Virus record (IMG/VR): IMGVR_UViG_2657245091_000008
DNA length: 64,000 nt
Source of the DNA: a virus
Lineage: Duplodnaviria; Heunggongvirae; Uroviricota; Caudoviricetes
Reading direction: 5' to 3' (one strand)
The notes under the pieces were generated by a model. It saw only the letters and a program-made list of their open reading frames with translations. It was not told the DNA's origin and searched no databases. Shown one piece after another: positions 2,042 through 56,132 of this stretch; within the stretch, counting starts at the first letter, position 1, and each line of letters starts with the position of its first letter. Made by a program: the position numbers and the translations under genes.

Positions 2042-2947
2042 TTAACGTTCTGCTTCACCACCAACGGCCTCCACCAGCGAAGTGAACATCGCGGATAATT
2101 CAGCAGTAAACAGGATAAAGTCAGCGTCAAATCGTTGCGCAACATCCTCTCGATCAATATCGTCGTTCTGGTCGTACAATTCGTCGCTGAACGACAAAGC
2201 CTTGATACTCATATCGTCATTCAGTCTGAAAAATGCACGGTCTTGCCAGTTAACCGCAACTGTGGTTGCAACCTTACCAGCTTCTATATGACTCATGATC
2301 TCGTCGGATAGCAGGTCCACTTTTTTGCAGCGGACCGCGCCGCCATCATCAAGCAATGCTTTTAAGGTCGCTTCCTCACCGGCACGGAAACCGTTCGGGA
2401 AGCCATTTTTAATCCAGCCAGTGATGGTCAGTTCTAATGGGTCTTTCGGAGAGAAGGGGACAACGGGCAAGCTGCCAAGCGATTTCCGTAACAAAGCCAG
2501 CTGATCCTCTGCTTTTTTAGCACTGCTGGCCTCGACAAAAACCAGATGATTGCTTCGGTCTATCAGGATTTTAGCGACTGATTTTCTCGTGAAAGCACGA
2601 GGAAGCAGAGAGTGAAGCACTTCATCCTTCAGCGAATCTTTTTCAGTCTTCTTCAGCTTTCTGTCTTGCTCTTCTTCAAGTGTCAGGATTTTTTTCTGTA
2701 ACTCTTCTTTGAGCACTTGAGAGGGTAGGATTTTTTCCTCTCGTTTATGCTGTATCAGAAGAAAACCTTGGTATTCATGGGTGAGGTTGTCGCCAAGAAC
2801 GGGGGTCCAACCAGCTTTAGCCATATCCTGAGAACCGCATGGGGTAAACACAAACTTGCTAAGGGCTGCATTTACTTCTGCAGTATCCCAGCTAACTTCG
2901 CGTGAAAGACGATAGATGAAGATATTTTTGAAAGCGACTGATCTCAT
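2042..2947 (-). CDS. rdgC: recombination-associated protein RdgC homolog
   Basis: 301-aa ORF; N-terminal [12 protein letters not shown]...[14 protein letters not shown] is characteristic of RdgC. Confidence 0.85.
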
Positions 2948-2953
2948 GTCTCA

Positions 2954-2997
2954 CCATTTGTGTTAGAAAATACATATTAATTATCTAACACAAATGG
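2954..2997. promoter_or_regulatory. palindromic pair of operator-like half sites (CCATTTGTGTTAGA ... TCTAACACAAATGG)
   Basis: 14-bp perfect inverted repeat with 16-bp AT-rich spacer immediately upstream of the rdgC-like start; contains the recurrent TGTTAGAAA core. Confidence 0.5.
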
Positions 2998-8310: not shown

Positions 8311-9504
8311 TTATGCTTTTTTTACATACTCCATGAACATTTTTTCAGCTTGTGCTGGTGGTGTTCCAGCCATGACAAGCGCATCAATGAACGCCTGCTT
8401 CTTCAGTGCGAACTGATCGGCAAGGCGTTGCTGAAGCTCCTTGTTTTTCTGTTTCTCACGTTGCAAGGCCGCTTCTTTTGCTGCCGCCCGTTTTTTCTGT
8501 GCATCTGACAACTTTCTGGCCTTGGTCAATTGGTCACGTAGTTTGTCGATCTTGCCGTTGTCCTTTGCCAGTTTTGTACTTAAAGCTGCCTGGCGCTTCT
8601 GATAGAGCCTCCATTCGCGTTTGGCGGCTTCAACGTTCGTTTTACTGCTACGATTGCGATTAAACTCCTTCTCGTCTTCTTTTGAGAAGTGTTTGGTTGT
8701 ACGGCGGCGATCGTCACCAAATGCAATTTGCGTTGCAGCCTTTTGTAGCGCACGAGCAATACTCATTTGCCAACTGGCGGACTGTAACCGCGTCATTGAG
8801 TGGATCACGTGTTTACAGGCGACGCCTTGCAGCTTCGGGTTGCGAACTTTTGGATAGGCGTATTCTTTTGGCGGTGCCAGGGCAAAGTTACCCGCAGTGG
8901 CGATGTAACGATACCAGTATTGATGACGACCACAGTCACAATCGAAAGACACTCGCCCGGCGCACAGTGATTTAGTGATTTTGAGAGCTGATTTATCGTC
9001 TTCTGCGATGTCATCAACCATCTGATCCCATTCTTCAAAGCGTATCCGGACGATATGGTGCTGGTGGACGGATATATCCGATGCTTCTACGCGGATATTA
9101 ATCACATTGTGGCGAAGAGATACGGGTGTAGCTCTTTTGATACCAGATCCGTCATCCACGGCGTTATTTGCACGCTTAATATCGATTGCCTGGCTGGATG
9201 CCACCAGCTGGGCGTATGTGATGCCAGCCGTCTTGCTGTCATATTTTTCGCGCGTTTTACTCCGTAGCTTTTCGAAACCTTTCAGGTCGTCTCGCGTGAA
9301 GAACGTGCCGCCTTTTTTCTTCCCTAACTTGAGAATATCTTCGGCGGATTTGTTCCTCAGTCTACCTGGCGTCAGCGTCCGGTGAGCTTGTCGGCGCTTA
9401 CGGGTTTGTTCTTTCCTGATAAGGTCGAATAAACGCGTGAAGTCCTTAGAGGACAGGCCGTCAGTGATATAGCGCCCGTCCTGGTTTTTCAGGAAATCAG
9501 GCAT
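8311..9504 (-). CDS. SWIM-type zinc-finger protein with basic coiled-coil C-terminus
   Basis: 397-aa ORF; CxC...CxH arrangement (FDCDCGRH...QGVACKHV) and a Lys/Arg/Gln-rich tail. Confidence 0.5.
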   Translation of the reverse strand: MPDFLKNQDGRYITDGLSSKDFTRLFDLIRKEQTRKRRQAHRTLTPGRLRNKSAEDILKLGKKKGGTFFTRDDLKGFEKLRSKTREKYDSKTAGITYAQLVASSQAIDIKRANNAVDDGSGIKRATPVSLRHNVINIRVEASDISVHQHHIVRIRFEEWDQMVDDIAEDDKSALKITKSLCAGRVSFDCDCGRHQYWYRYIATAGNFALAPPKEYAYPKVRNPKLQGVACKHVIHSMTRLQSASWQMSIARALQKAATQIAFGDDRRRTTKHFSKEDEKEFNRNRSSKTNVEAAKREWRLYQKRQAALSTKLAKDNGKIDKLRDQLTKARKLSDAQKKRAAAKEAALQREKQKNKELQQRLADQFALKKQAFIDALVMAGTPPAQAEKMFMEYVKKA

Positions 9505-9826
9505 TTTCTATCTCCGGTTCCGCGCTCGCGTAATCACGGATCTTGTTCCTCAGCCATGCCACATCAGGAAGAGTTAACGTGGTCCCGGCGGGCATTTCTT
9601 CCATTTCTGACTCATGGCCCACCAGCACCCGGAATACCCAGCGCAAATCTGCATTGCCATACGCCCTGTAGGCTGCAAGGTCTGAACGATATACTTCATC
9701 AATCTTTATCGTGTACTGGAAATTATCAGAGTGATACTCCGATACCCGCTTAATCATTTCCTGGTGAAACAGCGCACGAAAAATATCGTCTTCAATGTAC
9801 CTATCGTCGAGTCTGCTATAGCCCAT
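9497..9826 (-). CDS. hypothetical protein
   Basis: 109-aa ORF whose stop overlaps the start of the SWIM protein gene. Confidence 0.45.
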   Translation of the reverse strand: MGYSRLDDRYIEDDIFRALFHQEMIKRVSEYHSDNFQYTIKIDEVYRSDLAAYRAYGNADLRWVFRVLVGHESEMEEMPAGTTLTLPDVAWLRNKIRDYASAEPEIENA

Positions 9827-10808: not shown

Positions 10809-11153
10809 TGTCCTTCCTCCACGGATGACGGATACAAAAAAAGGCCGCACATGGCGGCCTGCTTTGGCGTTATGACTCCCTACCGCGCTTCGGCTGAAAG
10901 TTAATCGTCAAAAGAACCTTCAACGGGAGCCGTTAGCGCGATGGATTATGTGCAGTTTGTGATTTCAAAAATAGTGTCAACCACTTTTTTTGGATTTTAT
11001 TTTTTGACAGAAATTTGGCCTAAATCATGTTGATTTGGCTGATTATTTTTATAACATAAAAGTCATTTTGATTGCATGAAGGACGGTGCAGTGAAGTTAA
11101 GGGTTTTAGGGACCGCGCTCGCGGCTAAGATGGTAAAGTATGGAGTTAATGAA

Positions 11154-13671: not shown

Positions 13672-13980
13672 ATTGGCAGCCTCCTTTTGCTAAGTTAAGG
13701 AGCTACCGCGTGAGGTTCCAATCTCAATGGCGGTAGCACTGACTGGGTTGGAACTACCGGCGCAAAAGGGAACCGGCCTGCCTTTCGGCAGCCCAGCCAG
13801 CACTACCATTGATCTCTGAGCTAAACGCTACGTATGGCTGTGCGATGGCATGACACAAAAAAAGACGCTTTCGGCGTCTGTGTCGCCTTTTGCATTATCC
13901 GGGGTTCCAATCCCGGCACCCGTTTTTCTAAGGTGCCGTAGAAATATACCCCACGATAATGCCAGGGCGCAACAGTCAGT
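13672..13980 (-). ncRNA. structured untranslated leader, candidate c4-like antisense RNA region (copy 1)
   Basis: No credible ORF; GGTTCCAATC occurs twice (13706-13715, 13903-13912) with a partial complement at 13736-13745; hairpin plus T run on the minus strand around 13856-13880. Confidence 0.3.
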
Positions 13981-14482
13981 ATTTTATGCTTTGGCGGATT
14001 TCTTCCGGGCTTGCTTGCAGGCGTAGGCCATTGCTTTAGCTTTCACTTCATCCAGCTTCCCGGTAATCACTTCTTTTCCGAGAGTGACAAACCAGTCATA
14101 GCAACCGCCAGTAATGTTCTTGATTTGAAAGTTGAGGTAGCGAACAGTCATTTTGACACCCCCAGCGCGAATAAAGAATGCAGATTATCGCGTGAGTGGT
14201 GGACGACGAGTGATGGGAAAAGACTGTAGTTGTTCATAGTGTAGTGACTCCTTGCTTTCGGAGCCGCCATCGACTGTTCCACGGTCTGGTGGCGGCGCAA
14301 TAAAGGCTGGAACACCGTGAGTCAACGGGGGCTTTTCAGCCACCTATATTGCACCGCCATAGGTATGGCGGCGGCAATAATACGAAAAACTAAATAGTTT
14401 GTCTCAAAAAGTTGACCGGTGTGCCAATCGGTAGTGAATGTACATCGGAGAAATTTTCAATTCAACTTAAAATGTTAGAAAA

Positions 14483-15061
14483 CTAATTTATCAATTCAAT
14501 TGCCATCTGATACAACGCCATTTCATCGGCATTGTGCCGTATGAAATCTGCTTTTCCGCCTATTTTTCCATCAGCATGAACAGGGACCAGCCAGGGATAT
14601 TGTTCTCGGACCTCGGCTGGCGCTGCGTACTGGTGGTGCCATTTACACAAAGGGAGGACATATTTATGCGCGTTCTCTGCCGTTCTCCCGAAGATATGGT
14701 GCAGGGATACCACTGGGCTATGTTGCCCGTGAATATGGCAGGCAATGCAGGGGAGAGTACCGATAGCGGTCTGTATCCGGCGTTCATCGGCTGTGAGTGA
14801 TCTGCCCTTCAGGCCGCGTGACGTGCGTGTTTTTTTGGGCGGAGCGGATACAGCTTTATCTTTTCTCCGCTGTTCATATTGCTTTGCTTTTTCAATTTTC
14901 TTTTGCCGATATTCAGGCGATGCGGCTTTTTCTCTCGCTCGCTGCTGCTGGCGTTGAGCTTGTTGAAGGCGCTTTGCCCTTTGTTCCTCTCGCCAGGCCG
15001 GGTCAGCCAATTTTTGCATGGCCTTTTGTCTCTGTTTCTCCCAATAACTCTGTTTCTGCAT
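14483..15061 (-). CDS. ref: Ref-like recombination enhancement HNH nuclease
   Basis: 192-aa ORF; highly basic Gln/Arg/Lys-rich N-terminal half and Cys/His-rich C-terminal core (PCIACHIHGQH...LPLCKWHH). Confidence 0.55.
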   Translation of the reverse strand: MQKQSYWEKQRQKAMQKLADPAWREEQRAKRLQQAQRQQQRAREKAASPEYRQKKIEKAKQYEQRRKDKAVSAPPKKTRTSRGLKGRSLTADERRIQTAIGTLPCIACHIHGQHSPVVSLHHIFGRTAENAHKYVLPLCKWHHQYAAPAEVREQYPWLVPVHADGKIGGKADFIRHNADEMALYQMAIELIN

Positions 15062-15107: not shown

Positions 15108-15140
15108 ATGGTTAGATATTCAAAATTGATTTTCTAACAC
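15108..15140. promoter_or_regulatory. operator-like inverted pair upstream of ref
   Basis: GGTTAGATATTC ... GATTTTCTAACAC about 50 bp upstream of the ref start. Confidence 0.5.
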
Positions 15141-19607: not shown

Positions 19608-19636
19608 GTTAGAACATTGATTTTAGTTTTCTAACA
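19608..19636. promoter_or_regulatory. operator-like inverted pair
   Basis: GTTAGAACATTG ... TTTTCTAACAT about 45 bp upstream of the 19679 start. Confidence 0.5.
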
Positions 19637-19678
19637 TATTATTTTACCGCTCGGAACAAAACAGAGTCGGTATGCATT

Positions 19679-20674
19679 ATGAGTGCAATAATCACCCCAT
19701 ATGTCGTAAATGAAACTGGTGTGGCTGTCTTTCCTGTAGATAAGCCCACCAGCAATTACATCGGCGCAGGACGTCGTTTTCTTATATCCCCATTGCCGCG
19801 TGAACAGGCTGAAAACACCCCTGATGGTGTCGTTGACCTGAATTATTCACTGGTTACCAACCAGTCACTGGCACCCTTTTTTCAAAGTGAGCGCGTATTT
19901 AACGCGTTAGGTGGTGAGGATTCTCTCGTTCACTGGGTTAGCACCAACATTCACGATTGCCAGGCGCATGATAAGCGCGATTGCAGCCACCAGCTAACCA
20001 CCCATTTCTATAACGGTTCTGCCGTTCGCCTGTGCTGGAAGCATGATGCGGAATACATGATGAAGGGATACGGCAAGCTGGAAGACCAACTGTCACTGAA
20101 TCGCGCCAACTGGATTATGAACTGGGCTGCCAGCGAGTTAAAACTTCCGCCAGATCGCGATCTGAGCATGGTTGAACTCACCTTTTGGGCCATTCGCCGG
20201 AATCTTAAAGACGAACTGCCTGATGAAGCTGGTCGCATTGCATTTTGTCAGCCAAAAACTGAAATCCCTACCGGCACTCTGAAAGAGTCGGATATTACCT
20301 GGGAGCATAGTACCCGCGAGCTGGTGGATATTTCCGCAGAGCAGATCGTCAATCTGTCCGTCGATGAAGATTCTGGCCTCCTATATATGCGCCGTCCAAA
20401 AACCTTACTCGGAAAAAGCCCGGCTTATCTCCGGTTTGTGGTGTCTCGCCCGTGTGTAGGCTGCGGCGGTAAGGTTAATCACCCATTCATGTACCGCGCC
20501 CGCTCGTTAAACGAACACGACCGCTGGGCTGTTCCTCTTTGCGATGACTGCGCCAGAAGCGCAGAAAACGATGTCCGGGCATGGGAAAAAGCACATGGCA
20601 TACGCCTTTACGTAGCCGCTAACCAGCTTTTCGACTTCGCCATCGAGCGCGGAGTAATCACGTTTAATAACTAA
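19679..20674 (+). CDS. hypothetical protein with C-terminal Cys4 zinc ribbon
   Basis: 331-aa ORF; CVGCGG...CDDC near the C-terminus. Confidence 0.5.
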   Translation: MSAIITPYVVNETGVAVFPVDKPTSNYIGAGRRFLISPLPREQAENTPDGVVDLNYSLVTNQSLAPFFQSERVFNALGGEDSLVHWVSTNIHDCQAHDKRDCSHQLTTHFYNGSAVRLCWKHDAEYMMKGYGKLEDQLSLNRANWIMNWAASELKLPPDRDLSMVELTFWAIRRNLKDELPDEAGRIAFCQPKTEIPTGTLKESDITWEHSTRELVDISAEQIVNLSVDEDSGLLYMRRPKTLLGKSPAYLRFVVSRPCVGCGGKVNHPFMYRARSLNEHDRWAVPLCDDCARSAENDVRAWEKAHGIRLYVAANQLFDFAIERGVITFNN

Positions 20675-27643: not shown

Positions 27644-27663
27644 TACTGTATAAATGAACAGTA
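27644..27663 (+). promoter_or_regulatory. LexA (SOS) box
   Basis: TACTGTATAAATGAACAGTA fits CTGT-N8-ACAG exactly, 20 bp upstream of humD. Confidence 0.75.
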
Positions 27664-32706: not shown

Positions 32707-32726
32707 ATCTAAAAAGATGTGTTAGA
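32707..32726. promoter_or_regulatory. operator-like site
   Basis: GTGTTAGAAATTTAAT between the recombinase stop and the next gene start. Confidence 0.45.
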
Positions 32727-32734
32727 AATTTAAT

Positions 32735-33763
32735 TTACGAATCCATCAGGCGGCTATTAGCCCCCACAGACACGCCGCCACGGCGAAGATACCGCATAAG
32801 TGTTTCCGGTTTCTTCCAGGTTCCTTCCTGCATGATCTCCACCATAGACACCTGCTTTTCAGCCATATCAATAGCGGCCCCGACGCGTGCACTATGCCCG
32901 GTCCACGTCCGGTATCTTCCTTTGTTTGGCGTAGCATCTCTTTTATTCAGCAACACCCAGGCGTCGCTGAATATTTTCTCCATTGCAGGTGCAGTAAGGG
33001 GTGTTGTCGTGATCCTGGCCTTATTGCTACGGTGTATCGGCGGGAACAGCACTGCGTCAGGATGTTCGCGAAGCCCGGAAACATCCAGCCAGTCATTCAG
33101 CACAGCGGTAGTGCGACGGGAAAGCACCTTATCAAGCCCGGCGGCGGTCGTTATTGTCTTCGTGTGTGAAATATGTAGCGTGACAGTGTCACCTGTTTGA
33201 TCCAGATCTCCTACACGAATACGCGAGATTTCCGACATACGCATCAGCGTATTGTATGCAACAAAGAGAAAAGCCCGGTTGCGCAGGTCCACCAGCCGTT
33301 CTGACCTGGACAACAGGACGTCGAGCAGTTTCAGATCGTCCCACCGAAGCGGTATAGCCTGGCCTGTTCGTTCGCCTTTTTCAGTTGCCGCTTCGCGCCG
33401 GATGCGCCGCATAGCCAGAGAAACACTTTTATCATCCGAAAGTGGCGGAAGACCACAATGCGAAAGCAGCATGTTCAGCATGGCGTAGTGCTTATCAATG
33501 GTGGTCGAAGCCAGATCGGCATCATGCAGCTGAAGAAAATACTCGCGGGCCATTTCTGGTGAGATCGGAAACCAGGCAAGCTGGCGAGCGTGACACCAGC
33601 GCGCCCAGGAATGAAACACCAACCGGAGGTCGCGCAGAGTATTCGGCGCATAAGCCCCCTGGTCATTCATGAACCGCATAAAGTTTTCTGCGGCTTCCTG
33701 GTACTCTTTGCCAATGTTGCGCAGAAAACCACCGGAACTGCCAGAGATAATTAATTCACTCAT
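32735..33763 (-). CDS. dre: Cre-family tyrosine recombinase (Dre-like)
   Basis: 342 aa; blocks aligning with Cre by eye (AFLFVAYNTLMRMSEISRIRVGDL; TWTGHSARVGAAIDMA with catalytic-region His/Arg, C-terminal Tyr region); a rox-type site about 150 bp upstream. Confidence 0.8.
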   Translation of the reverse strand: MSELIISGSSGGFLRNIGKEYQEAAENFMRFMNDQGAYAPNTLRDLRLVFHSWARWCHARQLAWFPISPEMAREYFLQLHDADLASTTIDKHYAMLNMLLSHCGLPPLSDDKSVSLAMRRIRREAATEKGERTGQAIPLRWDDLKLLDVLLSRSERLVDLRNRAFLFVAYNTLMRMSEISRIRVGDLDQTGDTVTLHISHTKTITTAAGLDKVLSRRTTAVLNDWLDVSGLREHPDAVLFPPIHRSNKARITTTPLTAPAMEKIFSDAWVLLNKRDATPNKGRYRTWTGHSARVGAAIDMAEKQVSMVEIMQEGTWKKPETLMRYLRRGGVSVGANSRLMDS

Positions 33764-33915
33764 GAAACTATTTGACCTCTATATACAGATGACGCTACGC
33801 GAAAAATATAAAAATGACAGGGTAGCTATAAGTTAATTTTCAAAATACAAGCCTTTGATTCGAGGCACGTATTTTCAGTGATGTCAACACTGTTCATCTA
33901 CACATGATTATAGCC

Positions 33916-33947
33916 TAACTTTAAATAATGCCAATTATTTAAAGTTA
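33916..33947. other. rox-like recombination target site (14-bp inverted repeats, 4-bp spacer)
   Basis: TAACTTTAAATAAT-GCCA-ATTATTTAAAGTTA, a perfect inverted repeat; arms begin TAACTT like loxP arms; matches the published rox site as I recall it. Confidence 0.75.
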
Positions 33948-34044
33948 CAGAATGGCGATTTTTTTTAATCCATCATAGATTGATTTTGACCAGTAACACG
34001 TTGCCTTCATGGTCTTTAATTTGCGAAGTGTGGTTTATACAGTT

Positions 34045-34145
34045 GGTTTTCTAAAATTGATGACAAAAAATCACAGTTCGATCCTTTACTCACTCTGTTA
34101 TTCGACATAAATTTGTCATAGTAATTTTATGTTAGAAAACTAAAT
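34045..34145. promoter_or_regulatory. two operator-like sites in the promoter of the candidate repressor gene
   Basis: GGTTTTCTAAAATTGA (34045-34060) and ATGTTAGAAAACTAAAT (34129-34145), the second only 12 bp before the start codon. Confidence 0.5.
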
Positions 34146-34157
34146 CGAGTAGGAATA

Positions 34158-35195
34158 ATGAGTAAGAAGTCGATCGAGAAAGAGTACAAACGGTTCCTGC
34201 AAACCGCTGAACGGTGGAAAGAGCTGGTGGTCGCAAACTCTGTTTTCCATGATACCAGTTATGCTGGCGAGGAATTCCGCCATGTTGCATTAACGCATGA
34301 CCAAAACATATTAGAAGAAGCTGAAAAATGTCTTGCTGAATGGAAAGCCTTCGTTGACATGTGCCGCGATGCCGACGGCAAAGCGTCGAACATTGTTGAG
34401 TCTGTATATTCTCCGATCCCATTCATCATTGAGGACACCAATCAAAGCACGCATGTTGTTGTGCAAAGCGCTACAACAACACGTACATTTACACGTGAAC
34501 AATTGCTCAAAAAATACGACAAAATCATAAAGAAAAGCCTGAAAAATAGGGTTTTTTCTCAAATTGTAGGTGCTCTTGAAGAAGAACAGCGCTTCTTTGA
34601 AGCTGAGCCTGAAGGCGAGATCTACCGGGCGCGTAAAGAGGCATATACAGATGTTGTGCTGACAACAAACATCGAAGGCAGCAATGCCCTTTCTCGCTTT
34701 AGAGTTGGCGCACATGGCGCATTGGTTTTCGCAAGACTACCGAAGACAACGATCCCCGTTGTCAATAATGTTGGTGAACGCCGGAGCATTACAATTTATT
34801 CAGGCGTCGAATCGGTACCTTGCAGCCTTCTCGGCGATTTTAACTTATATCGTGTTCGTGACCTGGAAAAACACCAGCCAAGCTACGTTGCGAAGTCGTA
34901 CATCTTAAGGAACATCGATATTCGCAATGAAAGCCTTAAGCAGAAATCCGCTAAGATGCTGGAGGATGCCGATCCGGCTATTCGCCATATCATTGAGCGT
35001 AAGATACGTACATCACGTGAAGCAATGGCAAGGCTGGATAAAATGGATCTGGAATTGTTAGACGTAATGATGGCCTCTGGAGACGACCTGACCGGCATTA
35101 AACTGAATGAAGCTCGTAAAAAATACGGCAAAGCAATCGAAGAACGTTACGGATACACATTCCCCCAAACGCAGTACGCCGCGAAGCTCTGGTAA
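34158..35195 (+). CDS. candidate master (C1-analogous) repressor
   Basis: 345-aa ORF at the c1 position (convergent with pacB, beside the rox site) with two operator-like motifs just upstream; no similarity to P1 C1 that I can recognise by eye. Confidence 0.35.
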   Translation: MSKKSIEKEYKRFLQTAERWKELVVANSVFHDTSYAGEEFRHVALTHDQNILEEAEKCLAEWKAFVDMCRDADGKASNIVESVYSPIPFIIEDTNQSTHVVVQSATTTRTFTREQLLKKYDKIIKKSLKNRVFSQIVGALEEEQRFFEAEPEGEIYRARKEAYTDVVLTTNIEGSNALSRFRVGAHGALVFARLPKTTIPVVNNVGERRSITIYSGVESVPCSLLGDFNLYRVRDLEKHQPSYVAKSYILRNIDIRNESLKQKSAKMLEDADPAIRHIIERKIRTSREAMARLDKMDLELLDVMMASGDDLTGIKLNEARKKYGKAIEERYGYTFPQTQYAAKLW

Positions 35196-35203
35196 TCACA
35201 ACC

Positions 35204-35224
35204 GGCCCCGCATCGCGGGGCTTT
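35204..35224. terminator. bidirectional terminator hairpin between convergent genes
   Basis: CCCCGC-atc-GCGGGG hairpin flanked by T-rich sequence. Confidence 0.5.
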
Positions 35225-36731
35225 ATATATCCAGATCTGGCATTTCGATATCCGCCAGAACCTGATCTCGGAAAGTTGCCATTTCGGCACCAATATCTTC
35301 ATTAGCAGGCACATAGTCCACCAGCATAGTGAAGCAGTAGGTATCCCATCGGTCAGGCGATTTGATGTTTAGCTTTTGCCGCATGTGCTCTTTGCGCATC
35401 ATCGCCATTTTCCCTTCCTCATTCAGTAAAAAGGGGATTTTTGACGCTTGCTCTGCCGTTTTAGGGTCACTGTCTATCCGCATACGCCCTGACTTTATGG
35501 CATCACGCGCCATAATATTTGCGTAGGCACGCTGATTAACAAATCGCTCCCTGTCTTTGTTCGCAAACATGGGTTTTCCCCACCGAATACGTACCGGGTT
35601 CGCACCACGACGCACCAACTGCGCACACGTATCAGAACCAAAACCATCGGCATCAACCGCGATTGTTATATTCGGGTATTTTTCCGGCGTACATTCGTTA
35701 TATATAAAGTCAGCAAAGGCCAATGGGTCCATAGTGCCAGGCATCTCCATTACCTTAAAGTTAACAACGCGCCGCTTATCCCTGTGACCAGATACCTTGC
35801 AGATGTTGAGGACCGACTTATCTCGCCCATTACCAACGTCAGCCGTTGCCACCCATCCCCAGTTTTTCTCCAACAACACCTTGCGGCGAGCAGCGCGATC
35901 GCATTCATCACGACCAAGCAAATAGCCGTTAATTTCTCGTGGGAACTGACCAAGCACCTTGACCATATACTCAATAGAATCGCGCCCACCATATTCCAGA
36001 AGCTTCTGCTTGATGAATTGTGGTGTGACGAACGGTGATTCTTCCGAGTTAAGAACAATTGCTGTCCAGATCCCTTTCGGGTTGTCTGGGGTTTTTGCTT
36101 GAGAATGGTGCGAATCGTAGAAATAACCACTTGGCCTTGTTGGCTGGGATAGCATCAACATCCGGTTATCTTCTTCAGTAAGAGCACCGGTCATTACGCC
36201 GATCGCCTTATCAGATATACCAGATGCTTCATCCAGAATTAGAAGCAAATGTGCCGCGTGTTCCCCCGCCAGCGCTTCTTCGTTGCCGAGTCGATAACCT
36301 TTGCAGAGAACTTCCCAAATCCCCTTACGGGAGCGCTCATAAAACATGGTGTCAGAGAGGACAAAATAGGTCTGCAACCACCCATGACGCTTAACTGCAT
36401 TCGCCCAATACTGTTTAACGTATTTGAATACGCCTGTTTTTACCTGGCCTATCTTGTTAGCAACAATGATGACACGGGCATCGGGGAACAGGATCATAAA
36501 AATCAACAGCAACATCGCGGTAAGGGACGACTTCCCCGTTCCGTGTCCGGACGTGACGGTCGTCCTACTCCCCGTTTCCTGCACTGACTGAATGATCTGC
36601 TGCTGCTGGTGGGAGGGGAACATCCCAAAAATATCGACAACAGCCTGGGTAAAGTTGTAGCGGTATTTGATTACCATATCGCGCCAGCGTGGATCGCTGG
36701 TGACGCATTTAATCTTGCGCCCGCCAGCCAT
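35223..36731 (-). CDS. pacB: terminase large subunit PacB
   Basis: 502 aa; Walker A TSGHGTGKSS, Walker B LLLILDEASG, C-terminal nuclease-like region; directly after pacA. Confidence 0.8.
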   Translation of the reverse strand: MAGGRKIKCVTSDPRWRDMVIKYRYNFTQAVVDIFGMFPSHQQQQIIQSVQETGSRTTVTSGHGTGKSSLTAMLLLIFMILFPDARVIIVANKIGQVKTGVFKYVKQYWANAVKRHGWLQTYFVLSDTMFYERSRKGIWEVLCKGYRLGNEEALAGEHAAHLLLILDEASGISDKAIGVMTGALTEEDNRMLMLSQPTRPSGYFYDSHHSQAKTPDNPKGIWTAIVLNSEESPFVTPQFIKQKLLEYGGRDSIEYMVKVLGQFPREINGYLLGRDECDRAARRKVLLEKNWGWVATADVGNGRDKSVLNICKVSGHRDKRRVVNFKVMEMPGTMDPLAFADFIYNECTPEKYPNITIAVDADGFGSDTCAQLVRRGANPVRIRWGKPMFANKDRERFVNQRAYANIMARDAIKSGRMRIDSDPKTAEQASKIPFLLNEEGKMAMMRKEHMRQKLNIKSPDRWDTYCFTMLVDYVPANEDIGAEMATFRDQVLADIEMPDLDI

Positions 36732-38095
36732 TAATCATCCTCCGGCGGTTCTATCGCGATATCATCATCTCCGGCGTCATACCCTGCATCAGATGCATCA
36801 TAATCACCGTAAATTTCAGCCGTTGCCGAAGGGTCAATATCCAGCTCTTCGTCGTTGGCCTCGAATTCTCCAGCTTTACGCTCGCCATTGCGGTCGTAAT
36901 CTCCGCACCCCAATTCTTCAACAATGGTTGCCACATCCGCCCGGCGCTCTGCCAGCCATTGCGGATGGTTAGCCTGAAGCGTTGCAAACTCCCTTGCCTC
37001 TTTGTCCAGCTGTTCATCATCAACATCATTGACGTCAGAAACAGGTGGTTCGAGAAGAGTGATAGCTTTCGCCGCGCGCGCCGCGAGGATAGCCGGGACG
37101 CTGACCCCCTGGCGCTCGATGTATTCAGCAACACCGATATCATCCAGTTCCTCGCGCTCACGCATACGTATAGCGGCGGCGATAACTCTGGCAGCGCGTG
37201 CGTCAGCGCCAATGCGATATTCAATCTCTTTGCCACGCTGTTCGGCCTGTAGGCGTGCTAATTCGAGTTTTTCTCTGGCCTCAGCCTCTTTGAATGCTTG
37301 CTGGCGAGCGCTCTGACGAAGCTTTTCATCCCCCTGTCGCAGCTTTTGTTCGGACTGATATATAGCTGCCAACCTACTGATAAAATCATTCATGTAGTAG
37401 GCCGCGTCACTGATTAGACCGAGAAGGCGCTGCCCAGGGTGCATTCCTTCTGGCTCTTTATCGCCCAAGGCGTCTATTTCCGCCTGTAGACGTTCGGCCT
37501 CCTGATCAACAATGCTTTGATACTGAAGTGCGCGCTCTTGCGCCATTTGAATTGCTAACCGCAGGTGTTCTTCTGCGCCGTTCTTCATCATATCGCGAGC
37601 CACATTCGTAGTGGGCAATGTGGCACGCTGCACAGCACCGCCAGGGATCATTGCTGAAGATCCCTCAATTTTTGGGGCGCTTTTATCTTCTTCGGGGATC
37701 ATTTTCGCCATTTTTTCGCGCAATGATCTCCTGACAGATTCTTTTATCTCATTGTTATTATTGGTATTACTTTCATGATCCGAAGTTTTCTTTCTTGGCA
37801 TACTTCGGAAAGAACCTGCACCCTGCGAATTGTCAATTTCTGTAAATTTTGTTTTTTCTGCACCCTCTTCCAGCTTTTTTGTTGCTCTTCCCGCCCGTTT
37901 TTTTTCAGGTGATTTGGTGCTTTTTTTTGTTGTCTTTACCTGCGACCGCACCTCATTTTTTTTCATATTGAGATGCTTTCTGGCTGTATTGAAGCTAAGA
38001 CCATGCTCCTCACAGTATTCCTTTACAGTGATCCCTTTTTCTTCACGCAACGCTATAAAGCGGGCGCGGTGCTCCTCCCAATTAACCAGACTCAT
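36731..38095 (-). CDS. pacA: terminase small subunit PacA
   Basis: 454 aa; N-terminal HTH-like region (MSLVNWEEHRARFIALREEKGITVKEYCEEHGLS), acidic C-terminus; 1-bp overlap with pacB. Confidence 0.7.
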   Translation of the reverse strand: MSLVNWEEHRARFIALREEKGITVKEYCEEHGLSFNTARKHLNMKKNEVRSQVKTTKKSTKSPEKKRAGRATKKLEEGAEKTKFTEIDNSQGAGSFRSMPRKKTSDHESNTNNNNEIKESVRRSLREKMAKMIPEEDKSAPKIEGSSAMIPGGAVQRATLPTTNVARDMMKNGAEEHLRLAIQMAQERALQYQSIVDQEAERLQAEIDALGDKEPEGMHPGQRLLGLISDAAYYMNDFISRLAAIYQSEQKLRQGDEKLRQSARQQAFKEAEAREKLELARLQAEQRGKEIEYRIGADARAARVIAAAIRMREREELDDIGVAEYIERQGVSVPAILAARAAKAITLLEPPVSDVNDVDDEQLDKEAREFATLQANHPQWLAERRADVATIVEELGCGDYDRNGERKAGEFEANDEELDIDPSATAEIYGDYDASDAGYDAGDDDIAIEPPEDD

Positions 38096-38484
38096 AAAGC
38101 AACACCACGCTTTTTAACGGCGGCATTCCACAGCTTATTCGCCATGTCCACCAGCTCTCGTTGCTCTTTTCGCGCCTGTTCGACTGATTTCCTGCTACAG
38201 TTTTTAACCAGTAAGCTACCGTATTCAGGCGTGCGCCCGCGCACCTTGAACTGATATCCGTTCAGACCATGTAGCCAGTATTTTCGTGGATACACACGAT
38301 CATCCAGCTCACAGATTGCCCTGCTTGAACGAACAAAATGACGAATGATGTTAGTTACACTTACTCGTGAAACATGGAGATGAGGGTATTTTTCTTTGGC
38401 GAGAGTGGTAATTTCAGTGACTGTCAGATAGCAGTCAGCCCTGATCATGATATCCGCAATTTCTGCGCTGCTGATTTGTTCCAT
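38092..38484 (-). CDS. lpa: late promoter activator Lpa
   Basis: 130-aa ORF immediately upstream of pacA with an operator-like site in its promoter, as for P1 lpa. Confidence 0.55.
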   Translation of the reverse strand: MEQISSAEIADIMIRADCYLTVTEITTLAKEKYPHLHVSRVSVTNIIRHFVRSSRAICELDDRVYPRKYWLHGLNGYQFKVRGRTPEYGSLLVKNCSRKSVEQARKEQRELVDMANKLWNAAVKKRGVAL

Positions 38485-38560: not shown

Positions 38561-38577
38561 TGTATTAGAAAATTAAT
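38561..38577. promoter_or_regulatory. operator-like site upstream of lpa
   Basis: TGTATTAGAAAATTAAT about 80 bp upstream of the lpa start. Confidence 0.45.
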
Positions 38578-40014: not shown

Positions 40015-40090
40015 TGGTGGCCCCTACCGGATTTGAACCGGTGACCGTGCGATTATGAGTCGCCTGCTCTAACCACTGAGCTAAAGGGCC
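40015..40090 (-). tRNA. tRNA-Ile (anticodon CAU, ileX-like) or tRNA-Met
   Basis: Minus-strand GGCCCTTTAGCTCAGTGGTTAGAGCAGGCGACTCATAATCGC...GGTTCAAATCC...GGGGCCACCA; cloverleaf with CAU anticodon and encoded CCA; very close to E. coli ileX as I recall it. Confidence 0.8.
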
Positions 40091-40227
40091 AGATTACTGT
40101 TAATTCCGCTTACGCTTTTTGCCAGAACCGCGTAAGGCTTTTGCCGCTTGCTCGACCCCATATGCAACCACCAGCAAAAATAAAAATGTCCAACCAGGGT
40201 TCTTATCGGCAAACGCCCAAAAATTCA

Positions 40228-40551
40228 TCACTTACAGCCACCTTGCATTTCCTCGGATAATTCATTGATTTTAGTGCTCAATAAGTAATCAAAGTAAAGA
40301 TAAAACACAAAAGTAACGATAGTGCTTAAAGTGTCTGAAATTGCGTATTTCAGCTCAGGAAGCATGACAAAGCAGACAAATAGCGGAAGAAATAACTGCA
40401 CTATGCACAGGCTCTCCTTCCACAACCATCTATATCTGAAGTCTGACAACAAAAACTCCATTGCTTGAAACTTTATTAGATTGCGGTGCCTGGTGCCTCC
40501 AGGTGACGTTAACCAGTTAACAATTAACGCCGGGATGTTTGACTTAACCAC
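40228..40551 (-). CDS. possible small membrane protein between tRNA genes
   Basis: 107-aa AT-rich ORF with hydrophobic stretches; no clear ribosome-binding site. Confidence 0.25.
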   Translation of the reverse strand: MVKSNIPALIVNWLTSPGGTRHRNLIKFQAMEFLLSDFRYRWLWKESLCIVQLFLPLFVCFVMLPELKYAISDTLSTIVTFVFYLYFDYLLSTKINELSEEMQGGCK

Positions 40552-40711
40552 TAAGGAGGATTGTTTTAACTGTTCCGCGTGCGCTTAGCCGCATTCACCG
40601 CAATGGTAAGAGCACTTGGCTGGCTGGGCGGCGATGACGCCTGTACGCATTTGGTGATCCGGTTCTGCTTCCGGCATTCGCTTAATTAGCCAAATACTCT
40701 TAACGTTGCGC

Positions 40712-40798
40712 TGGCGGAGAGTAATGGAATCGAACCATCATCGCTTGCGCAATGGGACGGTTTTCAAGACCGCTTGAGCACCATGCTCCCTACTCTCC
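40712..40798 (-). tRNA. class II tRNA, anticodon UGA (tRNA-Ser-like)
   Basis: 87 nt; acceptor GGAGAGT/ACTCTCC, anticodon loop CUUGAAA, variable arm with GCAA tetraloop, T loop TTCGATT, discriminator G, encoded CCA. Confidence 0.65.
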
Positions 40799-41170
40799 CG
40801 TTATTGTGGCGACCGGTGCTGATCTCCGGCTTGCGGTTATTTCAGACTCTCACGGGCGTTTAATTGCCCCGCCGAACAGCTCTTTTCCGCAATAGCTGCA
40901 ATGTCTTTCGCGCATCAGCCTGCGCATTCACCACAATGTTGAGAACACTGGTTGTCACGCTGCAACGCAACATTTATTCGTAGATTGGGATATGACCCCG
41001 TTACGCCAGTGTTCTCAACGTTGTAGTGCCGGTTACGGTTCCGGCCAGGCCTCTTCCTCAACGGGGTGTTCTCCATACGGACTACCGTTTATTGGTCGTT
41101 CCTGCGGTTTATGTTGTGAAGCCAGATGCTTATCTTCTGGTTGCTTCAAAGAGCTGCACTTCCTCACAAC

Positions 41171-41244
41171 GGTAAGGGTACTTCGTAGGGATTCGAACCC
41201 TCTGCCAAGCTCGGCGATCTCCGACGTCGCAAAATACCCTTACC
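41171..41244 (-). other. tRNA-like fragment / degenerate tRNA
   Basis: Contains a T-arm-like GGGTTCGAATCCC and a 10-bp terminal inverted repeat (GGTAAGGGTA...TACCCTTACC) but no foldable anticodon or D arm. Confidence 0.3.
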
Positions 41245-41252
41245 TGTTGTGC

Positions 41253-41328
41253 TGGTGCCGATTAACGGACTCGAACCGCTGACCATTCGCTTACAAAGCG
41301 ACTGCTCTACCAACTGAGCTAAATCGGC
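41253..41328 (-). tRNA. tRNA-Thr (anticodon UGU)
   Basis: GCCGATTTAGCTCAGTTGGTAGAGCAGTCGCTTTGTAAGCGAATGGTCAGCGGTTCGAGTCCGTTAATCGGCACCA on the minus strand. Confidence 0.85.
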
Positions 41329-41332
41329 AATT

Positions 41333-41419
41333 TGGTGGGGAGTGATGGAGTCGAACCACCCGAGTCGCAATGACAGTAGATTTACAGTCTACCCCGCTAC
41401 CCCTACGGACTAACTCCCC
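41333..41419 (-). tRNA. tRNA-Tyr (anticodon GUA)
   Basis: 87-nt class II tRNA; anticodon arm GTAGACTGTAAATCTAC, T loop GGTTCGACTCC, discriminator A, CCA. Confidence 0.8.
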
Positions 41420-41424
41420 TAAAG

Positions 41425-41501
41425 TGGCGATGGTGGGTGGATTCGAACCACCGACCGACAGCTTAGAAGGCTGCTGCTCTATCCTACTGAGCTACACCAT
41501 C
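41425..41501 (-). tRNA. tRNA-Arg (anticodon UCU, rare AGA/AGG decoder)
   Basis: GATGGTGTAGCTCAGTAGGATAGAGCAGCAGCCTTCTAAGCTGTCGGTCGGTGGTTCGAATCCACCCACCATCGCCA. Confidence 0.8.
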
Positions 41502-42735
41502 ACTTGCCGGGTACGTCTCCGGCGAGGGCTTCCACCTCCGTATGCTTTTCGGCGCACCGCGCCCTGGCTGCAATTCGGTAACAGGGGATGCATAACCCTG
41601 GCTTCCAGCGTGATTAGCGCCTTCAGCATGACGGGATATACCCGTTACAAGAAATTCCCCCAGGATGCCATTAAGCAATGGCTGTTACGCGGGAGGGACG
41701 TAACAGGTAAGGGCGCTGACCAGAAAGACCTGACCCTTCTCATTCATCTGGTTAATCACACCAGCGCCCTTGCCTGTTATGCCTCCCCGTTCCCTAATAC
41801 ACAGACGGGGACACTCTGCGGTCGATTTTTTGACGGGGGACGACTCATACCCCGTGGCGTCTGGCTTCTTAGGCCGCTACCATCATCAGATCATCGTTTG
41901 CATTTACTTTAATGGTCGGTTTCTAAACCGCCGCAAAGTCGCTAACCATGACGAAAACCCTAAAAAAGCCCACCCGAAGATGGGCAAATACGCTACATCT
42001 CACACAAGAAAGAAGCCGACTGCCTGAGCTGGATTCACTTTCAAATGCCCGCAGAAAGGGATCACAAGTCGGCTTCTTTCTTGATGCGGCACTCTCTCCG
42101 CCCGTCACCGCTCTGTCTCGGTTGTCGCGTTTGCCACGCCAGCCGTAACGAGGTTTAAAGTCTTTGCACGTTTCCATCACTCGACTGCCGTCTGTGGCTG
42201 TTCGTTGCAGCGGGGGTGCCTCCCCCTGGGGATATCCCCGGCCTTACCCCATTCTTTCAAGACACAATGCAAGGCCACATCCGCATAGGTGCATTACCGC
42301 AACATTAAGGAGACTCAGGGCAAAAGGTAACCGCCACAAAAATCCCTATGCCTCCTTAATGTTGAAGATGTGCATTGATGATTAGATGCAGCATGTACTG
42401 TTACTCTCTGCCGGACCATCATCAATGAACACCTTAAAAAGACCTTCCGTGGCTCAACATGTATTGTCGTTTACTCCGCAAAGTGCTCTCTCTGAAACCA
42501 CTTTCCGCACTAAACCTGTTGAACTTTGGTCAGCTCGGTGCCAAAGCGTGCTTTTGCTTTACTATACTTTTCTAACACTTTAATTTGTTAACAGCCGGTG
42601 GGCAAACAATAACCAATAAGTGACTATCAAGCCCAGCAAGCGAAACGTGGGTGCCGCCCACCAGCAAGGAAAATTCTATGTTAAGTTATCATCACAATCA
42701 ATACATTCGAATTGTGATTTTAGATTTCTAACACA

Positions 42736-43959
42736 TTACTTCCCGTAAAGATCTTCTACGCCCCCATTCTTCTTATCCCATTCGTTCGCCCATACCCGGC
42801 AAGCGTCAATGATTTCCTGACGACGATCTCCTTGCATGAACGGGATGCTTTCATGGAAACAGCTTGGAATGCAGGCCACACTGAATACGGTATCAAACTC
42901 CGTCTGCTTGATTGCCTCCAGCGTCTCTGGACGCATTTTTAATTCATCGATTGGCGCATCCTTAGAGTCCATAATCCGGCGATATAAGCGCGGAAAATCC
43001 GTCTCCAGGTACGCCATAATTTTATCTGCGAGACATTCGTCTATGTCGGTATTCCAGTCCTTTTCGAAGCCCGGCAGGCGATAGTAAAGCGGCGTTCCCC
43101 ATACCGATGGGATCACATCCATCGTTAACAGGCGATTGGTTCTGATTTGTTGATGGTAATTAGCCGTCAGCAGTGCTTCGCCACGCTGCCCAGTTTCCGC
43201 AACCAGGCCGTGCGGATACTCATGGATGTAGGCAATGGCATCCCTTCCATCATACATAAGTGGAAATGTCTCTGGTCTTTGTCCCATGCCACAAGCACGG
43301 TTCAGATCGTGACCAAGCTGTGAGCACTCTCGCTTTAATGTTTCGATAATGCTCTGCGCTGTAGCCAACTTTTTACGCAGTGTGACGCCTTCGCCTTGAT
43401 AATCAATGCATTGCTGATTGAGCTTGGTTAAACGCTCTTTTAGTTCCCGGCGCTCTCTTTTCAGCGTGCGGTTATCCTTCTCCGCAACATCCAGCCGCTT
43501 TGTCAGGCTGGGCGGATAGTCTTTTTTGTAACGGTTCAAATCGGCTTCGGCAGATTTACGCAGTGTATTTGCCTGTTCAAGACGCGCTTCCAGATTGCCG
43601 ATCTCATTACGCATATTCGCGGCAAATTGATTAACTGCATCACCCAGGCTTTCAACTGTCGCTGATACGCCTGTGACTTGTGAAAAACGGATCAAGCCAT
43701 CATTAACGGCTTGTTGGTATTCCTCAAACTGATCCACCAGCTTATTGTAATCAACTGCCCCATCATCAAGCAGCTTGTTGATTTCCGCCACCAGGTTATC
43801 TGTAGTGGCAATGACACTCTCGTGCAGTCGCTTTGACAGGTCATCACCCGGATTCCGTTTCTGTATAAGAGCGATTTGTGTGCGCAGCGTTTCAATTGCT
43901 GTCGAGATAATTTCCAGATTAGAAGTATCAGTGTGTTGACTCATTGCTGTTCCCGTCAC
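42736..43959 (-). CDS. hypothetical coiled-coil protein
   Basis: 407-aa ORF; operator-like sites both upstream (43962-43988) and at its 3' end (42719-42738). Confidence 0.5.
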   Translation of the reverse strand: MTGTAMSQHTDTSNLEIISTAIETLRTQIALIQKRNPGDDLSKRLHESVIATTDNLVAEINKLLDDGAVDYNKLVDQFEEYQQAVNDGLIRFSQVTGVSATVESLGDAVNQFAANMRNEIGNLEARLEQANTLRKSAEADLNRYKKDYPPSLTKRLDVAEKDNRTLKRERRELKERLTKLNQQCIDYQGEGVTLRKKLATAQSIIETLKRECSQLGHDLNRACGMGQRPETFPLMYDGRDAIAYIHEYPHGLVAETGQRGEALLTANYHQQIRTNRLLTMDVIPSVWGTPLYYRLPGFEKDWNTDIDECLADKIMAYLETDFPRLYRRIMDSKDAPIDELKMRPETLEAIKQTEFDTVFSVACIPSCFHESIPFMQGDRRQEIIDACRVWANEWDKKNGGVEDLYGK

Positions 43960-44057
43960 CTTGTTAAATTAGTTTTCTAACATATTTTATTAGTTTGATG
44001 GCGGTATCGGAAGATGCAATAAACAAAAAACCCGCTAATTGGCGGGTTTTTATGCAA

Positions 44058-45199: not shown

Positions 45200-45460
45200 T
45201 TAAAGGGTTATTTTATCCTGTTCGGATAATTCTTTGATTGTCTTGTCGATTGCGATCAACCAACCTTCATAGGTTAAATCATCAACAAGTTCTACCAACT
45301 TATCATCGGTGTGAGGAAAGTATATCCAGCTCCAGTTCGCAGGGTTTTCTGCTTTTCGCAGCGTAAAAACCTTCTTGTATCGGTGGAACTCAAGGATATA
45401 CCCCTTCGATATGGAATATTCCTTTAGGTCTTCGACCGTAAACCTACGATTCTTTCGCAT
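45200..45460 (-). CDS. hypothetical protein
   Basis: 86-aa ORF downstream of darB. Confidence 0.4.
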   Translation of the reverse strand: MRKNRRFTVEDLKEYSISKGYILEFHRYKKVFTLRKAENPANWSWIYFPHTDDKLVELVDDLTYEGWLIAIDKTIKELSEQDKITL

Positions 45461-54568: not shown

Positions 54569-54890
54569 AGTTACGGCCTCACTAACAGGTTTAACAACCT
54601 GCCACCCGCTGTCAAACAGGTGGCAGGACGTGACAGGGTTGACAGACTGGCGTTAGTGAAACCAGCAGGCCGAAGCCTCCCCATCACGCCCCACCATAAT
54701 TCGGGCGTAACGCGGTTTACGGACACAAAAATACCGCAATATCGGAAATCTGCGGTTGTCCGCACTAACATTCAGGCTGTCAAACCCGGTCGCAGAATTT
54801 GCTACGACGGCATGAATATAAGCCTGAAAACATGGAAGATCAACTAAAAATTTCAGCAATGGATGACTTCAGTCGATGATGCAGATCATA
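54569..54890 (-). ncRNA. structured untranslated leader, candidate c4-like antisense RNA region (copy 2)
   Basis: CTGTCAAAC occurs twice (54609-54617, 54777-54785) with its complement GTTGACAG at 54638-54645; 9-bp stem hairpin CCTGCCACC...GGTGGCAGG. Confidence 0.3.
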
Positions 54891-54894
54891 CATT

Positions 54895-54931
54895 CCGTTT
54901 TAGAAACAGCAAATTAATTTTCTAACATAAA
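54895..54931. promoter_or_regulatory. operator-like inverted pair upstream of immI-like module 2
   Basis: GTTTTAGAAACAGC ... ATTTTCTAACATAAAT. Confidence 0.5.
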
Positions 54932-56112: not shown

Positions 56113-56132
56113 CACTATGTTAGAAATTTAAC
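56113..56132. promoter_or_regulatory. operator-like site
   Basis: ATGTTAGAAATTTAAC upstream of the 55944 start. Confidence 0.45.

Follow-up and report, generated by a model that had tools for sequence, protein, structure and literature searches.

The window analyzed here, a stretch of 64,000 nucleotides from IMG/VR virus record IMGVR_UViG_2657245091_000008, is a phage-D6-like plasmid prophage of the P1 family, and its gene at 34158..35195 (+ strand) very probably specifies this element's master immunity repressor, C1, which is a divergent P1/P7 C1 family member (∼21% identity). The open reading frame (ORF) starts with ATG and encodes 345 amino acids (aa), as given in the initial annotation, which had proposed a candidate immunity repressor at the c1 position with no recognizable relative. 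The proposed role is supported by homology to P1 C1, by synteny and by a dispersed motif found at the places occupied by C1 operators in P1. The statement about relatives does not hold, as the protein is 100% identical at the aa level to C1 of D6 (AAV84948.1 / ASR76322.1), which lies in the same place between rox/dre and pacB, and falls into the same curated families as P1 C1.

The gene itself is not new, its c1 annotation going back to 2004. AY753669 labels it c1, phage repressor protein, similar to phage P1 C1 repressor, and MF356679 labels it prophage repressor; on many plasmids, the identical protein carries the Prokaryotic Genome Annotation Pipeline names "phage repressor protein" or "hypothetical protein." Matches were found in 140 plasmid records, and in 110 of these, from E. 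coli, Salmonella, and Shigella, the match spans 80% or more of the query. At the DNA level, the region from 33700 to 35300 is 98.9 to 99.0% identical to Escherichia phage D6 (AY753669, MF356679), and its identity to E. coli plasmids reaches 99.8%. The rest of the window is a mosaic relative to D6 (80 to 98% identity, with gaps), so the element is D6-like and not D6 itself. What may be new in our analysis is only the operator consensus with its map of sites and the prediction of a Tus-like fold.

When the protein was searched by tblastn against 50,697 phage records, D6 alone matched, even at an E value of ≤10, which explains the impression of a gene without relatives. P1 C1 is not reached by plain tblastn, and profile methods are therefore needed. 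By BLASTP, the protein shares 21% identity with P1 C1 over 240 collinear residues (7-237 versus 8-242). Both the D6-type and the P1 C1 match PHROG 1678 from end to end (E values of 2.8e-170 and 2.6e-140, respectively), and all homologues of both carry PF27008 (Phage_P7_repressor_C1) in precomputed annotations, from which we take the family name, the Pfam library that we scanned having no PF27008 model. Residues 7-240 also match the NCBIfam model NF041318 (phage_rep_C1; E = 8.9e-6, 25.4 bits). The initial annotation had suggested profile searches as a check, and these led to the P1 C1 family: hhalign of a D6-type alignment (9 sequences) against a P1-type alignment (12 sequences) gave a probability of 97% (E = 9.8e-11) over 230 columns, with residues 7-241 aligned to P1 residues 8-246. 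In the joint alignment, 15 residues are invariant (Y10, F13, D32, G37, R41, P86, P88, I90, L140, R157, R159, V183, G187, Y214, and C222). An exhaustive HMMER search (E ≤ 0.001) returned 134 clusters at 50% identity, most of them with proteins of 250 to 290 aa; in about 10 of the 134 clusters, the proteins have 340 to 380 aa and the profile match spans the D6-type C-terminal region.

No helix-turn-helix (HTH) could be placed with confidence in the initial annotation, and we likewise detected no Pfam HTH domain in the protein. Neither Pfam nor fold searches gave any sign of a lambda-type CI/Cro repressor (HTH_3 or Cro/C1-type HTH, with or without an S24 peptidase). The missing HTH is a trait of the C1 family and not an oddity of this gene. 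PHROG 1678, which includes the experimentally characterized P1 C1, is labeled "unknown function," and such repressors are consequently hidden from PHROG-based pipelines.

The position of the gene is that of immC in P1-type elements, between a lox-type site with its recombinase and pacB, and convergent with pacB. The gene for the terminase large subunit, pacB (35223..36731, −), converges on c1, as does pacA, and the 27-bp gap between the stop codons of c1 and pacB holds a GC-rich hairpin terminator (35204..35222, +), in agreement with the convergence described earlier. On the other side lies dre (32735..33763, −), which encodes a Cre-like tyrosine recombinase. The 394-bp interval between dre and c1 contains rox, the site for Dre, and no ORF longer than 33 aa, which bears out the earlier reading that the rox-type site alone separates the two genes. 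The 32-bp rox site is exact (33916..33947; TAACTTTAAATAAT-GCCA-ATTATTTAAAGTTA), with 14-bp inverted arms and a 4-bp spacer, and is annotated in AY753669. We compared the window with two distant relatives, L006 (C1 52% identical) and L007 (C1 43% identical). In both, the immC-type position of c1 and the gene order recombinase, site, c1, pacB, pacA, lpa are kept.

The two operator-like sites near the start of c1 are copies of one asymmetric 15-bp motif with the consensus TTAGTTTTCTAACAT. The proximal site (34129..34143, −; TTAGTTTTCTAACAT) is a perfect match 15 to 29 bp 5′ of the ATG, and the distal site (34043..34057, +; TTGGTTTTCTAAAAT) lies 101 to 115 bp 5′ of the ATG, inverted relative to the proximal one; both are kept in L006 and L007. 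Scanning the window with the pattern TTRRTTTTCTAANAY and allowing up to two mismatches, we found 19 sites against 3.97 expected, a number reached in none of 100 shuffles. Although ∼87% of the window is coding, 16 of the 19 sites are intergenic (binomial P of ∼6e-12), and 15 sites lie wholly in intergenic segments, compared with 0.7 in composition-matched shuffles of the same segments. The whole D6 genome has 20 sites, of which a single one falls within the 25-kb block of late structural genes; no operators are annotated in the D6 GenBank records. The earlier observation of two operator-like motifs within 120 bp of the c1 start is thus confirmed, whereas the accompanying claim that c1 is the only gene with two was overstated, since a hrdC-like gene also has two (with one and two mismatches) and the pmgM region has two weak ones. 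Still, no other gene in the window has two sites that fit the degenerate pattern perfectly.

The core of the motif, TTTTCTAACA, recurs in L006 and L007 twice upstream of c1 (+ strand at about −115 and − strand at about −25), in the same positions and orientations, as well as upstream of lpa and beside the recombinase, while the flanking DNA has diverged. This conservation of motif and position amid diverged DNA is a phylogenetic footprint. A full-text literature search for the motif, which had the primary D6 papers outside its reach, returned unrelated primers only.

The placement of the sites parallels the P1 C1 regulon at lpa, repL, ref, c4/ant, and dmt, and would do so at the repressor's own candidate promoter as well. 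P1 has 22 C1 operators, which are asymmetric and dispersed (PMC8546580), and C1 controls lpa and repL (PMC8546580) as well as ref, dmt, ssb, ban, and kilA (kilA/repL) (PMC4713147). In the window, the lpa site (38562..38576, −) is located 77 bp upstream of lpa (38092..38484, −), comparable to P1 Olpa, which lies 71 to 87 bp upstream of P1 lpa; its core is kept in L006 and present as a variant in L007. The repL site (56117..56131, −; one mismatch) is upstream of repL, and the ref site (15126..15140, +) falls in the intergenic DNA that separates the ref homologue (14483..15061, −) from a divergent operon on the + strand. A divergent pair of sites at 2960-2974 (−) and 2977-2991 (+), with two mismatches and one mismatch, respectively, lies 12 to 29 bp upstream of the hrdC-like gene (2042..2947, −), which heads a hrdC / cytosine methylase / dmt operon. 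One further site (14472..14486, −) lies upstream of a − strand module comprising a small ORF, C4 RNA, icd, and ant, and another (54914..54928, +) lies ∼90 bp upstream of a c4 / a1b1 / icd / ant module.

We also note that the two sites of the hrdC pair are only 2 bp apart, an arrangement that recalls the "bivalent" operators of P1. The window further contains two complete ImmI-type modules on the − strand, at 13726-13936 and 54616-54821, each preceded by an operator-like site. Their C4 antisense RNA genes are at 13726-13813 and 54616-54701 (both −), accompanied by an isrK-like RNA at 13858-13936 (−) in the first module and an a1b1 target element at 54769-54821 (−) in the second.

A strict sigma-70 scan found no c1 promoter. 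A candidate promoter, Pc1, can nevertheless be proposed on the + strand at 34085..34113, with TTTACT as a putative −35 hexamer (34085-34090), a 17-nt spacer, and TAAATT as a putative −10 hexamer (34108-34113); a putative ribosome-binding site, TAGGA, follows at 34150..34154 (+). This is the only candidate whose position is conserved (TTTACT-17-TAAATT in L006 and TTTACG-17-TATAGA in L007). The two conserved sites flank this conserved but weak candidate, being inverted and 86 bp apart in the window and 87 bp and ∼98 bp apart in the relatives. The proximal operator would lie just 3′ of the Pc1 transcription start, with ∼70 bp between that start and the distal operator on its 5′ side, and C1 may shut down its own transcription through the two inverted operators, possibly linked by a DNA loop. 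This geometry would fit the looping by C1 that Heinzel et al. reportedly described in P1 in 1994.

From these data, we propose that C1 binds the asymmetric 15-bp operator, probably as a monomer, at ∼19 copies in the window and 20 in D6. Binding would turn off early and lytic promoters, namely, those of lpa, which encodes the late-gene activator, of repL, which serves lytic replication, and of ref, together with those of the hrdC-dmt operon and both c4/icd/antirepressor modules. The DNA would be read without an HTH, probably by a Tus-like α/β core whose long β-strands bear R41, R157, and R159, which are conserved across the family. The protein comprises a core homologous to P1 C1 (aa ∼7-241) and a helical C-terminal extension (aa ∼245-345), and this D6-type C-terminal domain of ∼100 aa may serve oligomerization or the binding of a partner.

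The suggestion of a Tus-like core comes from structure prediction. An AlphaFold2 model of the 345-aa protein, built on a multiple sequence alignment (MSA) of 19 sequences, had a predicted local distance difference test score (pLDDT) of 84.9 and a predicted template modeling (TM) score of 0.53. Its C-terminal domain consists of two long helices (233-269 and 276-307) and, after them, three short ones; a search with only the C-terminal 113 aa gave no meaningful match in Pfam or NCBIfam. A Foldseek search of the model, also among the checks suggested earlier, gave E. coli Tus-Ter (4XR2, 4XR0, 4XR1, and 1ECR) as the only significant PDB neighbors, with E values of 1.2e-8 to 6.8e-7, a probability of 1.00, and TM scores of 0.34 to 0.44 over ∼300 columns; the next match had an E value of 0.06. 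A model of a P1-type C1 (pLDDT of 78.9) likewise matched Tus only (E values of 2.4e-8 to 9.2e-8, next match 0.23), the two models being not fully independent, as they were built on one MSA. As modeled, the protein appears to share the Tus fold, in which two α/β domains are joined by long interdomain β-strands.

We claim similarity of fold and not homology, as support at the sequence level is weak and unstable. Identity to Tus is 7 to 11%, with TM scores of ∼0.4, and the model of PF05472 (Ter), which matches Tus itself at 1.7e-136, gave no Pfam match to the protein at an E value of ≤1. In hhalign, 19 C1 sequences aligned to close relatives of Tus only with a probability of 17% (E = 0.0015) and to a slightly more diverse Tus set with a probability of 56% (E = 1.1e-4), and a deep alignment of 103 C1 sequences against the latter set gave 1.8% (E = 0.027); homology at the sequence level was accordingly dropped. 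The register was the same in all three runs (D6 ∼109-175 versus Tus 179-246), with the invariant YRxR (R157, R159) opposite the KIKR strand of Tus, and the order of elements in this region (helix, helix, long strand, strand, strand) agrees with Tus. A profile search of the PDB found no Tus and no solved relative of C1. The idea that the D6 operator resembles Ter (ATGTT..AACTAA) was rejected, as 762 of 5,000 shuffles score as well.

P1 C1 acts as a monomer on asymmetric 17-bp operators, and the Tus monomer reads its asymmetric site through interdomain β-strands, as Kamada et al. reportedly showed in 1996. Both proteins are monomeric, and both have asymmetric recognition sites, but they differ in role, Tus arresting replication forks and C1 repressing promoters. 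We tentatively raise the possibility, to which we give slightly less credence than to its contrary, that the HTH-less C1 proteins found in phage-plasmids of the P1 and D6 types are related to Tus in structure, and perhaps by descent, and read asymmetric operators as monomers via Tus-like interdomain β-strands. A literature search found no paper linking Tus and C1, with key P1 and D6 papers and the text of the Pfam entry lying outside that search.

Compared with P1/P7 C1, the D6-type protein has in common the ∼240-aa homology, a locus convergent with pacB, dispersed asymmetric sites, and the lack of an HTH, but it differs in its sequence (only 21% identity) and in having the motif TTAGTTTTCTAACAT instead of the operator ATTGCTCTAATAAATTT. 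It is also longer (345 aa versus 283 aa in P1), with a structured helical C-terminal domain where P1 C1 has a short, basic, low-confidence tail. The "stoperator"-type repressor of mycobacteriophages L5 (gp71) and L1, an HTH protein with no known relation in sequence or fold, provides an analogy only, namely, that of one repressor with many asymmetric sites dispersed over the phage genome (PMC1934351).

Several observations weigh against assigning the gene as the C1 master repressor. The evidence, which consists of homology, position, and motif genomics, is computational throughout. The NF041318 score of 25.4 bits falls well below the cutoff of 500 that marks equivalog-level similarity to P1 C1, which makes the protein a distant relative or a member of a distinct subfamily and not a P1 C1 equivalog. 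Of the 19 motif matches, three lie inside ORFs and may be due to chance, and the candidate Pc1 fits the promoter consensus at only 8 of 12 positions. With up to three mismatches allowed, neither the window nor D6 had a match to the P1 operator consensus; in the P1 immC fragment, which served as a positive control, the scan recovered four annotated P1 operators (Olpa, Oc1a, Oc1d, and Oc1e). Finally, when P1 Coi, ImcA, ImcB, and Lxc were used as tblastn queries, E values exceeded 0.1 everywhere. With coi, imcA, imcB, and lxc absent, P1 cannot serve as the template for the regulatory circuit.

An alternative reading is that the gene is a C1 homologue that either does not read the motif or is not the master repressor, immunity being exerted mainly by the two c4/icd/ant modules or by another regulator and this gene having a narrower or different role. 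The low identity to P1 C1, the lack of the partner genes coi and lxc, the extra C-terminal domain, and the presence of two complete C4 antisense RNA modules would all fit such a reading. We nonetheless consider it improbable, as the motif is found at the P1 C1 operator loci, including the upstream region of c1 itself, and the motif and its positions accompany c1 in relatives at 43 to 52% identity. In addition, the P1 operator and the D6 motif exclude each other between the two phages, as expected if the operator is specific to the type of C1. No copy of the D6 motif is present in the P1 immC fragment, and the two operators have only TCTAA in common, a similarity not above chance (4,294 of 5,000 shuffles are as similar). 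As the operator sequence differs from that of P1, we propose that the two types are heteroimmune.

The likeness to Tus, its top and only significant structural neighbor, together with the asymmetry of the sites and the location of one of them near repL, could also suggest a polar barrier to replication forks or helicases that controls plasmid or lytic replication and not transcription. This seems very unlikely. The sites lie 10 to 140 bp 5′ of gene starts throughout the genome, on mixed strands and with no orientation pattern of a fork trap; the sequence is not significantly similar to that of Tus (no match to Pfam Ter; hhalign probabilities of 17%, 56%, and 1.8%); and the protein's homologue P1 C1 is known from experiments to repress transcription (PMC8546580, PMC4713147). 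The alternative that the initial annotation had set against its own proposal, a partition, replication, or structural protein with no DNA-binding role, could be entertained for a protein with no HTH and no Pfam domain in the library scanned, but we give it hardly any credence: the protein is homologous to a known DNA-binding repressor, its only structural neighbor is a DNA-binding protein, and genes for StbA/StbB, ParA-like, RepA-like, and RepL proteins are annotated elsewhere in D6.

If the gene is the C1 master repressor, its control must differ from that in P1, where induction proceeds by an SOS-to-Coi route (PMC4713147). No LexA box was found near c1, and together with the lack of coi, imcA, imcB, and lxc homologues, this means that the SOS-to-Coi route cannot operate here. 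In a circuit without Coi and Lxc and with an extra C-terminal domain, induction must work differently from P1, and the two c4/ant modules and the C-terminal domain would be the obvious candidates for control. The sole perfect LexA-box-like site in the window (CTGTATAAATGAACAG, 27646-27661) is just upstream of hot / humD (umuD′-like). At the place of the P1 corepressor gene lxc (82 aa), directly 3′ of ulx, the window has an 86-aa ORF (45200-45460, −; D6 orf13, PHROG 6844). The ORF has no detectable similarity to Lxc and may be a nonhomologous replacement at the ImmT position.

The operator consensus and site map would define the immunity group and the C1 regulon of D6-type elements, found on at least 110 plasmids of E. 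coli, Salmonella, and Shigella. The Tus-like fold offers a testable hypothesis for how the long-studied P1 C1 could bind DNA without an HTH. If true, it would provide a structural basis for the unusual DNA recognition by C1 and would link Tus, which occurs only in Enterobacterales and a few neighboring groups, to a family of mobile-element repressors with at least 134 clusters at 50% identity.

Further operator-like sites lie at other loci. Next to the recombinase gene, a site with one mismatch (32719..32733, −) comes just after the stop codon of dre and precedes the orf117 / orf116 / dut operon, with equivalents in L006 and L007. The pdcB site (19623..19637, +) is 41 bp upstream of a pdcB-like gene (19679..20674, +), and a weaker site with two mismatches (11043..11057, +) is 18 bp upstream of a simB-like gene. 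Two sites border pmgS (42736..43944, −), one 24 bp upstream of the gene (43969..43983, +) and one, with one mismatch, in the interval that separates pmgS from the tRNA genes (42720..42734, +).

The tRNA genes themselves are five in number at 40015-41501 (−), identified by ARAGORN and Rfam as Met-CAT, Ser-TGA, Thr-TGT, Tyr-GTA, and Arg-TCT. In the D6 GenBank record, the matching place has three tRNAs (Ser, Thr, and Asn), annotated on the + strand, and the mismatch reflects a real difference in content, a questionable annotation of strand or identity, or both.

The rox region also contains a strong sigma-70-like promoter at 33907-33934 (−; TTGGCA, 16 nt, TATAAT; 11 of 12 positions matching) that points to dre. 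Its −35 hexamer falls within the spacer and arm of rox, and Dre bound to rox could therefore occlude its own promoter. In the metagenomic relative L007, a recombinase 64% identical to Dre (8544-9572) is accompanied by a variant rox-like site at ∼9730-9765 (TAACTTTAGATAAC-TCCC-ATTATCTAAAGTTA), with one symmetric change in the arms and another spacer; the two may represent a new Dre-like recombinase/site pair.

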